Assembly (NCBI RefSeq): GCF_006345805.1
Contig: NC_042997.1
Span: 24,614,001 to 24,678,000, forward strand
DNA: 64,000 nucleotides
Direction of reading: 5' to 3'
Source: Octopus sinensis
Lineage: Eukaryota
Every line of letters starts with the position of its first letter. The stretch's first letter is position 1. Positions 44,217-57,805 of this stretch are shown here, one piece after another. The position numbers and the translations under genes are program-made. The notes beneath the pieces are model-generated. The model ran no database searches. It was given only the letters and a program-made list of their open reading frames with translations, and had not been told where the DNA came from.

Positions 44217-45061
44217 ATATGTATTTAAACTCATCAGTGATTATCGTGAAATGTTTCGCGACAATGTATCTATATTTGAGGCGTCTGTTCCTATGTAATA
44301 TAAGAGGATTACATAAAACCCGAACCTCACAACCACAATTTCGATCAATCAAGTATTTAGTCGATTGATTGATCGATATGATGTCAGATTTTGTGCTAAT
44401 TCGGTTTATTTTACATATGAATAAATGCATCCATACGCATTTGCATACATGCACATACACAAGCATATATCTATCTACAAATATATCTATCTATCTATTT
44501 TTTCTCTTTTCTCTTGTTCCTTTTCCTTTTCCTTTTTTTTCTTTTTATTCTTTTTATTTTTTATTTTATTAATTGTTTTTTGTTCTTTTCTTGATCGAAA
44601 ACCTACGCCACCCTTTTTTTTTTTGTTATCTTCATCCCCCAAAAGAAAAGCTCTACCTTGTAACTTGTCCCATCTGTGTGCAGCCCTGTGTGGCCAATAA
44701 AGAAACTTATCTATCTATTTATGTCTGTCTGTCAGTCTAACTTTCTATCTATCTCTCAGTCTGTCTGTATGAATGTATATATTTGTGGACGAGTGTTAGC
44801 ACTAATATATTGTTACAGTCACATAGTAATGATGTGACGGTTGTGTACTTTTTACTGTCTTTTTACTTTAAAAATCTTCAACACCTTCTCATCATTCCAT
44901 CTCACCAGCAAAATTGAGCGGTGAACCGAATGCTTCTGTACCACGTTAGCCCATTACCTATTACTTGAATTTGGCAGTTGCTTTATACGTTTTCAGTAAA
45001 TAACTGATACTTTAAGTTATCGGTCTCAGAAGAAATTTCTACCATCCTATATTCATGCATA

Positions 45062-45495
45062 TTCTAATTCTTTATCAAGCACTTTGACGGATATTTGTCC
45101 TCATCTTGTTTGTTGTTAACACAACGTTTTGGCTGATATACACTCCAGCTTTCATTAGGTGTCTTAGGGAAATTTCGAACCTGGGTTCTATTTCCTAAGG
45201 TATTTTTCGATGTTATTATTATCATCATTATTTAGGTCATTGACTGGAATCGAACTCGGAATCTTAGGGTTAGTAGACCACGCGCTTAACCACAACGCCA
45301 AATGACCATGGAAAATTGTGGAGTGAATTATAGGGCTTATAAATCTAATATTTCCCTATCCTTCCTTAATACTGGTTCCCATATGCTACTCATATCTGTA
45401 CTCGGTCTACTTAGGAGGTTGTTGTGTCCTAACATATGTGCTGCTTCTTTTAGTTTTCGTATTTTCCAAAGGTGTTCTCTGTTTATTATTTTAAC
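45062..45495 (-). mobile_element. 5'-truncated Penelope-like element: ORF C-terminus, tRNA-like module and hammerhead motif
   Basis: 45337-45495(-) translates VKIINREHLWKIRKLKEAAHMLGHNNLLSRPSTDMSSIWEPVLRKDREILDL*; 45241-45300(-) has A-box tggcgttgtgg and B-box gagttcgattcc; 45118-45163(-) is HHR-shaped. Confidence 0.75.
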
Positions 45496-46052
45496 TAATA
45501 TATTGTGTTAAAGTCACATAGTAATGATGTGACGGTTGTATACAGCAGCCTGTATTTTTGCTTTAAAAATTTTCAGCAACTTCTCACCATTCCAGCTCAC
45601 CAGCAAAATTGAGAATTCAAATTAATTAGCCCCGAAAAGCGCATATTAATTTGAATTCTTACTATCGAGTAACCAATTTCACGTTATTACGTGTAAGACG
45701 GTTCGGTATTCTCTGTAAATGCACAAAGAGCATTTTAAGGGCTGCATACTTTGTTATACTTTGTTTTGTTGCTGTTGGATTAGCGAAACAATTTTGAGAA
45801 GGGAACCAAGGGATAAACCCCGTTTTCCCGGGATTTACCGGGTACGTCAGCTAGTATATATATATATATATGTAAGGTATACTAGCCATCTCAATATGGC
45901 TAACCACTAAGGGTGGGTGTAATTGTAGCTTGTAGCCCCAGGAGATACTAGCCATATTGAGATGGCTAGTATACCTTACATTGTCGTGCAGTTACTGTTT
46001 ACATCTCCTTCAGAGATTTATTATTGCTATATATATATATATATATATACAC

Positions 46053-46385
46053 AAATATGTTACATTACTCGATAGTCAAGATAAAACTCTGAGTTTCAGA
46101 TGCCGAAGTGGGAATCCACGACATCTCTTCGGTTATCTGGCTATTTGAAAACCTCTTTAATAAGTAAGAACTTGGGATTATTAGTTTCTTTGAGTAAAAT
46201 TTCTAAGAGGGTTTTCAAATAGCCAGATAACCGAAGAGATGTCGTGGATTCCCACTTCGGCATCTGAAACTCAGAGTTTTATCTTGACTATCGAGTAATG
46301 TAACATATTTTTGTATAGAATGTCCTCTATTTACATAATATTGAGGTCTCTTTCTTTCTTTTGTTATCTTACCGTTTTACCAATA
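46053..46385 (+). mobile_element. PLE-like terminus with an inverted ~105-bp duplication, two hammerheads
   Basis: 46053-46156 matches the reverse complement of 46205-46310; HHR 46225-46284(+): agauaa CCGAAGA gaugucg..cggcauc u GAAA cucagag UU uuaucu; mirror copy 46079-46138(-); (TA)n on both sides. Confidence 0.82.
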
Positions 46386-56087: not shown

Positions 56088-56738
56088 CATCATCATCATC
56101 ATCATCGTCGTTTAACGTCCGTTCTCCATGCTAGCATGGGTTGGACGGTTCGACCGGGGTTCTGGGAAGCCAGAAGGCTGCACCAGGCTCCAGTCTAATT
56201 TGGCAATGTTTCTACAGCTGGATGCCCTTCCTAACGCCAACCATTCCGTGAGTGTAGTGGGTGCTTTTTACGTGCCACCTGCACAGGTGCCAGGCGGGGC
56301 TGGCAACGGCCACGGTCAGATTGGTGTATTTTATGTGCCACCGACCGTCACGGAAGCCAGTCGAGGCGTTCTGGCATCGGCCACGAGTCGGATAGTGCTT
56401 TTACGTACCACCAGACCAGGGATCCTGGCTGGTTCAATTCGATTTCGATTTCGCTTGCCCCAACATGTCTTCACAAGCAAAGGGGGTGGCAAGGTGTGCC
56501 TGTCGTACGGTCGCATTGGAGTATTTTACGTGCCACGGCCACGAGTCGGATAGTGCTTTTACGTACCACCAGACCAGGGATCCTGGCTGGTTCAATTCGA
56601 TTTCGATTTCGCTTGCCCCAACATGTCTTCACAAGCAAAGGGTGTTGGCATGGGTGCCTGTCGTATGGGTACGGTCGCATTGTAGTATTTTACGTGCACG
56701 CCCCGAGTCGGATAGTGCTTTTTACGTACCACCAGGCC
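56088..56738 (-). mobile_element. RTE-type SINE/LINE end with (GAT)n tail and internal ~160-bp tandem repeats
   Basis: Minus 3' end ...gcatggagaacggacgttaaacgacgatgatgatg; motif ggttggcgttaggaagggcatccagc; units at 56378, 56536 and ~56700. Confidence 0.7.
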
Positions 56739-57507: not shown

Positions 57508-57805
57508 GAAGGCGCGTGGCTTAGTGGTTAAGGCATTCGGCTCACGATTTTAAGGTCGTGAGTTCGATTCCCGGCGACGCATTTTGTCCTTGAGCAAGAC
57601 ACTTTATTTCACGCTGCTCCAGTTCACTCAGCTGGCAAAAATGAGTTGTACCTGTATTTCAAAGGGCTGGCCTTGTCACACTCTGTCAGACTGTGTCTGG
57701 GGTACACGTGTCTGTGGATTGCTCAATCACGTTAATTTCACGAGCAGGCTGTTCCGTTGATCGTATCAGCTGAGACCCTCGTCGTCGTAACCGACGGAGT
57801 GCTCC
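57508..57805 (+). mobile_element. SINE family D: different tRNA head and middle, family C 3' half
   Basis: A-box tggcttagtgg, B-box gagttcgattcc, gtccttgagcaagacactt, then ttgtacctgtatttcaaaggg...gtcgtaaccgacggagtgct shared with family C. Confidence 0.85.

Follow-up and report, generated by a model that had tools for sequence, protein, structure and literature searches.

A tRNA-derived head in the pseudo-LTR of a high-copy Penelope/Poseidon-type retrotransposon of Octopus sinensis and the probable start of the element RNA at this head

The DNA stretch analysed here (the window) spans 64,000 nucleotides of the Octopus sinensis genome (NCBI RefSeq assembly GCF_006345805.1, contig NC_042997.1, positions 24,614,001 to 24,678,000). 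The minus-strand interval 45496-45083 is a dead, 5'-truncated copy, cut at both ends, of a high-copy Penelope-like element (PLE) of the Penelope/Poseidon type. The pseudo long terminal repeat (pseudo-LTR) of this family opens with a head derived from a tRNA, carrying A and B boxes, and contains a hammerhead ribozyme. Judging from the sequence, the RNA of the element probably starts just before the head, most likely through RNA polymerase III (Pol III), and most new copies are probably short units running from head to hammerhead. All coordinates of the element refer to the window and to the minus strand; head nucleotides are numbered from +1, the first nucleotide of the head.

In full-length copies the order is head, (AAT)n, ATG, hammerhead, tail, open reading frame (ORF), stop, spacer, and head again. 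The window copy begins, at its 5' truncation point 45496, with the last 52 codons and the stop of the PLE reverse transcriptase (RT)-endonuclease ORF (45337-45496, putative GIY-YIG C-terminus). The encoded peptide, VKIINREHLWKIRKLKEAAHMLGHNNLLSRPSTDMSSIWEPVLRKDREILDL, is followed by a TAA stop at 45339-45337 and is 62% identical, over 47 amino acids, to the C-terminus of the RT-endonuclease protein P0001 from another source (E 1e-19 in a two-sequence comparison), which bears out its assignment to a PLE in a first-pass annotation. A 29-nt spacer follows at 45308-45336. Its 3' half is in family copies an imperfect inverted copy of the first 10 nt of the head; the final 6 nt are predicted to form the leader of the transcript. 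The 73-nt head occupies 45235-45307, and an (AAT)n microsatellite of variable length, about 28 nt here, lies at 45207-45234 between the head and the ORF start. The next segment, 45164-45206, is the ORF-frame start of the next repeat, whose family ATG (45192-45190) is lost in this copy. The hammerhead (45118-45163) and the 3' part of the pseudo-LTR (45083-45117) complete the copy, which ends about 12 nt before the usual 3' end of the family and lacks the tail. ORF end, tRNA-like head and hammerhead thus lie on the minus strand in the order first described. The head had also been placed directly 5' of the hammerhead, but between the two lie the (AAT)n, about 28 nt long, and a further stretch of about 45 nt in which the family start codon is found.

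The loose A- plus B-box pattern has five matches in the window versus 0-3 in shuffled sequences, and taken alone is therefore near chance. The head is nevertheless real, because of its similarity to tRNA-Arg(ACG) and its conservation across copies. The head of locus L035 is identical, without gaps, to tRNA-Arg(ACG) genes of the same genome at 47 of 73 positions, with scores of 65-68; other isotypes score at most 57.5, and the maximum in 1000 shuffles was 33.5-40.5. Among the tRNA genes sampled, 36 loci (30 + 6) from the searched genome G000 that cover part of the isotypes, tRNA-Arg(ACG) is the best fit, and the comparison points to it as the source of the head. In G000 about 90 matches to tRNA-Arg(ACG) genes are arranged in tandem, mostly with a period of about 206 bp, at C2:3121912-3162236 (L267-L270).

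In the head so compared, the A box (45300-45290 in the window copy) and the B box (45255-45246 there) are identical to tRNA-Arg(ACG) at 18 of 22 positions, versus 29 of 51 outside the boxes (p 0.06). Cloverleaf pairing is mostly gone: 2 of 7 pairs are kept in the acceptor stem and 1 of 4 in the D stem, and fold z values range from -0.1 to +1.7. Boxes kept and stems lost are the pattern of a promoter of the type found in short interspersed elements (SINEs), as far as sequence comparison can tell, and the spacing of the boxes agrees with the SINE promoter consensus quoted in PMC8969392. A functional tRNA gene is ruled out by the lost stem pairs and poor folds, and by the negative scans: ARAGORN finds no tRNA in the window, and Rfam reports there only a tRNA-Sec match with E 1.5, neither head nor ribozyme passing the library threshold.

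The search of G000 yielded 5417 candidates, of which 40 were scored and 30 loci fetched. Head, (AAT)n and hammerhead are found at the same place in all 30, so that the module is common to all the copies compared, as had been anticipated, and a one-off SINE insertion is ruled out. Of the RT-anchored loci, 18 have the stop motif downstream; 16 of these run into the head and 2 end there, and none passes from stop to hammerhead without a head. Conversely, (AAT)n and PLE sequence directly follow 25/30 and 26/29 heads in two samples. Heads with no PLE body nearby are rare (1/30 and 3/29), a further 4/30 being inverted arms. One other A/B-box head was listed by script in the fetched loci and the window, with a score of 59.5 versus 116-122 for family heads, and two more were seen by eye. 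The window itself holds, at 57510-57700 on the plus strand, a further SINE-like element whose tRNA-type head has both boxes and whose body is different, and a shortened relative at about 55795 on the minus strand.

The head was acquired by the family of the window copy, because other PLEs examined are headless. L311, a full-length relative of 40% identity retrieved from a metagenome, has a minimal hammerhead and no A- plus B-box pair. Three other PLE families of G000, known from fragments, show no head after their stops when inspected by eye. These fragments, at L305:1963-3040, L122:5557-6543 (minus strand) and L279:541-1125 (minus strand), have Cys-rich linkers before GIY-YIG and served as headless controls.

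Copies of the family are far more abundant from the head onwards than upstream of it. Exact 20-mers were counted 7386 times in G000 for the hammerhead, 4938 times for the head and 834 times for the spacer just upstream. These 20-mers match exactly 13/29, 11/29 and 15/29 ORF-end copies, respectively, which gives estimates of about 16,000 ribozymes, 13,000 heads and 1,600 spacers. The estimates are probably too low, because 400 kb of unselected DNA hold 9 matches, or about 6-7 copies. Heads thus outnumber spacers about 6-8 to 1 genome-wide. Searches with the head alone or with the ribozyme part alone retrieve mostly ORF-free units of about 250-350 nt; copies with tRNA head and hammerhead and no ORF, whose existence had only been suggested, are the majority.

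The 5' ends pile up at the head. In a sample of 30 head matches (the first along contig 1, sorted by eye, including one duplicate pair and one two-armed palindrome) 7 copies break off within the head, 16 have their end at about -7 to +3, and 7 run into the ORF. Among the 23 copies reaching the start of the head, 16 therefore end at -7 to +3, versus an expected 0.097 (p 8e-12). Many of the 5' ends are head-to-head fold-back palindromes centred on the two bases that precede the head. Perfect palindromes of this kind number 642 genome-wide versus 456 spacer-linked heads, counted with comparable patterns. The start at the head is shared by the ORF-bearing copies L135 and L142; a third, L146, has an ORF end upstream. 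In loci L031-L090 the units are singles or head-to-head palindromes and form no head-to-tail arrays, arrays elsewhere in the genome not having been searched for.

A pile-up of this kind may reflect the end of an RNA or a hairpin at which cDNA synthesis turns back. At 57 head-start sites, from loci not selected on upstream sequence and with both arms of a palindrome counted, 9 run on into the spacer (8 recognised by pattern and 1 by eye) and 16 show fold-back arms. A palindrome with the same 5+2 layout, GAACC-CA-GGTTC (45188-45177 in the window copy), is passed first by the RT and was used as control hairpin: 73 of 82 sites continue and none folds back. The arms observed at the head are its reverse complement. 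Fold-backs of the spacer type are absent from L001-L234, in spite of the greater stability of that hairpin (-4.6 vs -2.1 kcal/mol), and many copies start at -3 to +3 without any arm. For these reasons the favoured template is one ending near -6, a point 13 nt upstream of the A box, and there would be a second start at -2. Pol III starts are expected at a purine after a pyrimidine; both -6 and -2 are such purines.

The head could be passive, a passenger that stems from an old insertion of tRNA type and became fixed in the master element, with cDNA made on long Pol II transcripts folding back at the spacer-head hairpin. The coincidence of the pile-up with a palindrome and the frequency of the arms (16/57 sites, 642 perfect cases) suit this explanation, and inverted 5'-truncated copies are typical of PLEs (PMC8557442); yet it leaves the armless starts, the lack of fold-backs at the 82 control sites and the lack of the longer, more stable spacer-type arm unaccounted for, and cDNA still paired to RNA should fold back mainly at the end of its template. 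Boxes better kept than stems and the scarcity of TTTT runs described below are likewise unexpected for a passenger, which, despite the equal age of ORF-free and ORF-linked units and the failure of a test on the B box (see below), is regarded as improbable.

An RNA ending at the head may also have been made otherwise, from an internal Pol II promoter or by a nuclease acting on a tRNA-like fold within some longer transcript. There is a precedent in the pseudo-LTR of D. virilis Penelope, which has a TATA-less internal promoter with a downstream promoter element (PMC2377424). A capped RNA would solve the problem of translation, and several copies start exactly at +1. The loss of the cloverleaf, measured by the stem pairs and fold values given above, disfavours RNase P, many copies keep the leader to about -6, the starts lie 9-13 nt before the consensus A box, and Pol II offers no reason for the loss of TTTT. 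An origin of the end by either of these routes seems unlikely.

TTTT runs were examined along the ORF, which a Pol III transcript would have to cross. None is common to half or more of the copies in 2526 aligned columns of 21 copies. The rate is 0.56 runs/kb in these copies versus 2.35/kb in 19 ORFs hand-picked for matching base composition among 60 listed of 73, 12 of the 19 having retroelement-type Pfam matches. L311, which is headless and has an equal base composition, contains 9 such runs in 2640 nt. The loss of TTTT from the ORF is suggestive only.

Were the short units a true PLE-dependent SINE family with source genes of their own, later captured by the PLE or co-amplified with it, they should stand apart from the ORF-linked units. 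Non-CpG divergence is 0.063 in the head and 0.048 in the body of 70 ORF-free units, versus 0.069 and 0.047 in 44 ORF-linked ones. No diagnostic variant of the ORF-free units, sought in these 114 units and in 2 x 100 heads, survived replication. A first signal at B-box C56, noticed post hoc (21/43 vs 6/43 changed), led to a prediction, stated beforehand, for 100 + 100 fresh positional rows tallied by hand. In the same rows its partner G57 was changed 19 versus 21 times. ORF-free units are, with less than 700 bp, no coding capacity and a tRNA-derived head with A and B boxes, similar to SINEs as described for SINEBase (PMC3531059). In contrast to the partner LINE and simple-repeat 3' tail of that description, their 3' end is the PLE pseudo-LTR end plus tail, and (AAT)n is internal (PMC3531059). 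The RNA of PAc, a Poseidon element of Anolis carolinensis, must extend past the priming site (PMC11167929), and most solo units do not. Thus the predominance of ORF-free units, their longer (AAT)n (median 55 vs 28-36, partly a selection bias), the few heads found without a PLE body and a spacer resembling a decayed fold-back arm, as if a hairpin-ended head cDNA had joined the ORF end, notwithstanding, a separate SINE family is very unlikely. Given the equal divergence and the failed C56 replication, nothing speaks for an independent SINE lineage or for promoter selection acting on short units, and the PLE-dependent SINE proposed at first is, as a lineage of its own, not upheld.

The preferred explanation, that the head is the internal Pol III promoter of the PLE, would work as follows. 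The RNA would begin a few nucleotides upstream of the head, the pile-up of 5' ends marking its 5' end, and Pol III would read through the TTTT-free ORF. The RT would prime internally at the tail, as shown in vitro for PAc. Priming at the first tail would copy the first 250-300 nt and yield a solo, SINE-like pseudo-LTR, and priming at the downstream tail would yield ORF-bearing copies. At the end of the template the cDNA would fold back on the built-in GCCC-AC-GGGC palindrome and prime the second strand, giving head-to-head palindromes; opening of the fold-back hairpin would leave arms of variable length. Since the hammerhead extends over the start of the ORF and its cleavage would require a dimer or the help of protein, uncut RNA is the likely template. 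In PAc, reverse transcription starts within the first 111-118 nt of the ORF, and uncut RNA is the main substrate (PMC11167929). The protein may come from Pol II read-through. In its strongest form the explanation can be put forward only tentatively: an autonomous protein-coding retrotransposon may have given up its Pol II promoter in favour of a Pol III promoter derived from a tRNA, cleared a 2.5-kb ORF of Pol III terminators, and be shedding more than ten thousand SINE-like solo pseudo-LTRs from the 5' end of its own RNA, a built-in hairpin priming the second strand. The family would then show a SINE head while still within the element that is its parent.

Several observations weigh against transcription of the element by Pol III from the head. 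Pol III RNAs are uncapped and usually short. Autonomous partners of elements with Pol III promoters have been argued to need Pol II (PMC10886601). Better preservation of C56 in ORF-free units, the outcome predicted, was not borne out (26/100 vs 18/100 changed, p 0.23). The hairpin of the control palindrome is less stable than that of the head (-0.3 vs -2.1 kcal/mol). The absence of TTTT has a probability of 0.09 and 0.19 under Markov nulls, codon shuffles give 0.01-0.5 for its scarcity according to the copy, copies not being independent, GGGG runs, too, occur less often than in the control ORFs (0.36 vs 0.94/kb), and a single sequence, L311, serves as the full-length control without a head. 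In RNA-seq data (three raw unstranded runs of another organism label, about 6% of each being read) no pile-up of starts or ends was seen and head depth did not exceed ORF-end depth, mapping of a 73-nt head beside a masked repeat being likely poor. Depth was equal on both strands, and 67-71% of the reads run into unlike sequence. The family reads come from copies carried along within transcripts of the host, and such data have no bearing on a short Pol III RNA.

The hammerhead is of the minimal type I: helix I has 5 bp, an extra A follows A9, helix II has 6 bp in the family, and a palindromic AACGUU replaces helix III. In the window copy three conserved positions, not two as first counted, carry G to A changes, G5 (45156), G10.1 (45150) and G12 (45130), and the ribozyme is predicted to be inactive. 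In the family the core is restored, as had been expected, CUGANGA being kept in 84 and GAAA in 72 of 114 units; by a strict pattern the entire motif is intact in 19, and not in the window copy. Minimal hammerheads are distinguished by an extra nucleotide after A9, a G10.1-C11.1 pair and a palindromic 15.2-16.2 (PMC4209133); these features are found in the family hammerheads. AACGUU pairs with itself, as a hammerhead dimer needs. No hammerhead family of Rfam matched the window, L311, L035, L088 or L007, and single-strand folds are no better than shuffles, as expected for a motif without helix III. Position 7, the sole unconstrained position of the core, is polymorphic in the 114 units (65 T, 16 A, 3 C), which hints that source elements kept the ribozyme core, or the Asp/Glu encoded there, under selection.

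An ATG about 30 nt before the ribozyme opens a reading frame that runs straight through it and reaches the first conserved protein block without a further in-frame methionine. The N-terminus of the protein P0005 is the same ribozyme-encoded peptide. As the hammerhead lies within the first codons of the ORF, the head is about 60-100 nt upstream of the start codon, and thus placed as a promoter of the whole element. The idea of a Pol III promoter for a short promoter-plus-ribozyme RNA holds in one respect, as ORF-free units start where a Pol III transcript would; the placement itself suits a promoter of the whole element and not of a short RNA alone.

The copies of the family have variable 5' ends in the endonuclease-like ORF and a common 3' end, which may carry a tail of about 45 nt. 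Alignments of full-length copies with P0005 span up to 700 amino acids at about 48-60%. RVT_1 (Pfam) matches P0005 (E 6e-11) and P0001 (E 1e-11); the decayed ORF stretches of the family itself have no significant Pfam match. The motif pattern CVYSIPCSCGRLYKGET..R..EH..DHVW..EAAHM is present in copies, Pfam GIY-YIG is weak on P0005 (E 0.23), and a PDB sequence search returned only weak matches to group II intron RTs. Partial-tandem pseudo-LTRs, optional tail and inverted 5'-truncated copies are all present. By structure the family appears to be of the Penelope/Poseidon type, the clade being suggested by the putative C-terminal endonuclease and by the lack of a Cys-rich linker, which other PLE fragments of the genome possess. 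Two metagenome scans for relatives gave none and one locus, respectively. The latter, L311:1-2959, is a complete PLE unit whose ends share a direct repeat of 99 nt (a tandem or circular form); it has an intact 879-amino-acid ORF, upstream of which the minimal hammerhead sits. The family is probably common to related species, since 20 public sequencing runs from 9 studies, under six organism labels and with no RNA run among them, contain part of the unit. In the oriented copies L130 (about 1230-1270) and L197 the ORF is joined straight to the pseudo-LTR body, without stop, spacer and head; these joins are likely deletions or template jumps.

The octopus element resembles PAc and the Penelope/Poseidon clade in having a single ORF for an RT and a putative GIY-YIG endonuclease, partial-tandem pseudo-LTRs, a hammerhead across the start of the ORF, a pair of 3' ends separated by about 40-45 nt (the tail) and inverted 5'-truncated copies (PMC11167929, PMC8557442). 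Internal priming in vitro and the hammerhead within the ORF have been shown for PAc (PMC11167929). In contrast to PAc, the octopus pseudo-LTR opens with a tRNA-derived A/B-box head at which most copies start, and the available text of PMC11167929 mentions no such head; the same is true of those of PMC8557442 and PMC13282606. The Sm-alpha and Sj-alpha repeats of schistosomes also combine a Pol III-type promoter with a hammerhead downstream (PMC6765202), but are described there as ribozyme-processed tandem repeats with no autonomous element having the same unit. The octopus unit is the terminal repeat of an ORF-bearing PLE, its copies are mostly dispersed singles or head-to-head palindromes, and its hammerhead is of the minimal PLE type. 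Non-LTR retrozymes are likewise non-autonomous, hammerhead-bearing units related to PLE pseudo-LTRs, but are head-to-tail tandems making circular RNAs (PMC7229834; bioRxiv 10.64898/2026.07.22.740005). The words 'tRNA' and 'promoter' have no occurrences in the available text of the latter report.

TRIMp3 elements (Helenus, Ajax, Cassandra) have a Pol III promoter derived from a small RNA inside the terminal repeat, but are non-autonomous LTR elements with primer-binding site (PBS), polypurine tract (PPT) and target-site duplications, and their autonomous partners are argued to lack the shared promoter (PMC10886601). In the octopus family, the internal region is instead the PLE ORF, and the protein-coding PLE itself bears the head. 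The octopus SINEs OR1 and OR2 originate from tRNA-Arg. They have a tRNA-derived head as well, but are cited as CORE-SINEs (PMC4824008, PMC4758252), with a CORE domain of about 60 bp after the head, for which there is no room in the present unit; they are set apart by description, and a shared head is possible. In a search of the literature, covering paper listings and text passages, no description of a tRNA-derived head in a PLE pseudo-LTR was found, and the unit may be catalogued in Repbase, Dfam or SINEBase as an unclassified SINE. Sm-alpha, retrozymes and TRIMp3 each appear to share part of the design of the octopus element, and none the whole.

At the junctions of the window copy target-site duplications are not evident, no systematic search having been made. 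Direct repeats of 120 nt, 86% identical, at 45494-45613 and 44801-44918 bracket the PLE fragment together with about 165 nt of other DNA; they are presumably Helitron-like ends. The fragment may have been carried by another element, since its usual 3' end is missing. Other repeats are found nearby. Two long inverted repeats, MITE-like (resembling miniature inverted-repeat transposable elements), lie at 46046-46317 and 45870-45981, the former giving a below-threshold Rfam match to mir-9 (E 7e-9) that probably stems from its hairpin. The segment 44000-44138 belongs to a different high-copy repeat, which also has matches flanking several of the loci retrieved and looks like the 3' part of a CORE-type SINE. 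A 158-bp tandem repeat (2.3 copies), GC-richer than its surroundings, is located at 56378-56736.

Autonomous retroelements are generally thought to need Pol II. If transcription from the head is as proposed, the question arises whether a Pol III transcript can be the template of a protein-coding retroelement, or even its message. By definition SINEs are Pol III units that borrow the enzymes of LINEs (PMC3531059), and PLEs would join the drivers of tRNA-headed short elements. An origin would also be offered for promoter-plus-hammerhead repeats such as Sm-alpha. The second-strand step of PLEs is listed as still unvalidated (PMC11167929). Whatever the polymerase, a sharp 5' end of the RNA and hundreds of fold-back junctions would record second-strand synthesis in PLEs and the origin of their inverted 5' ends.
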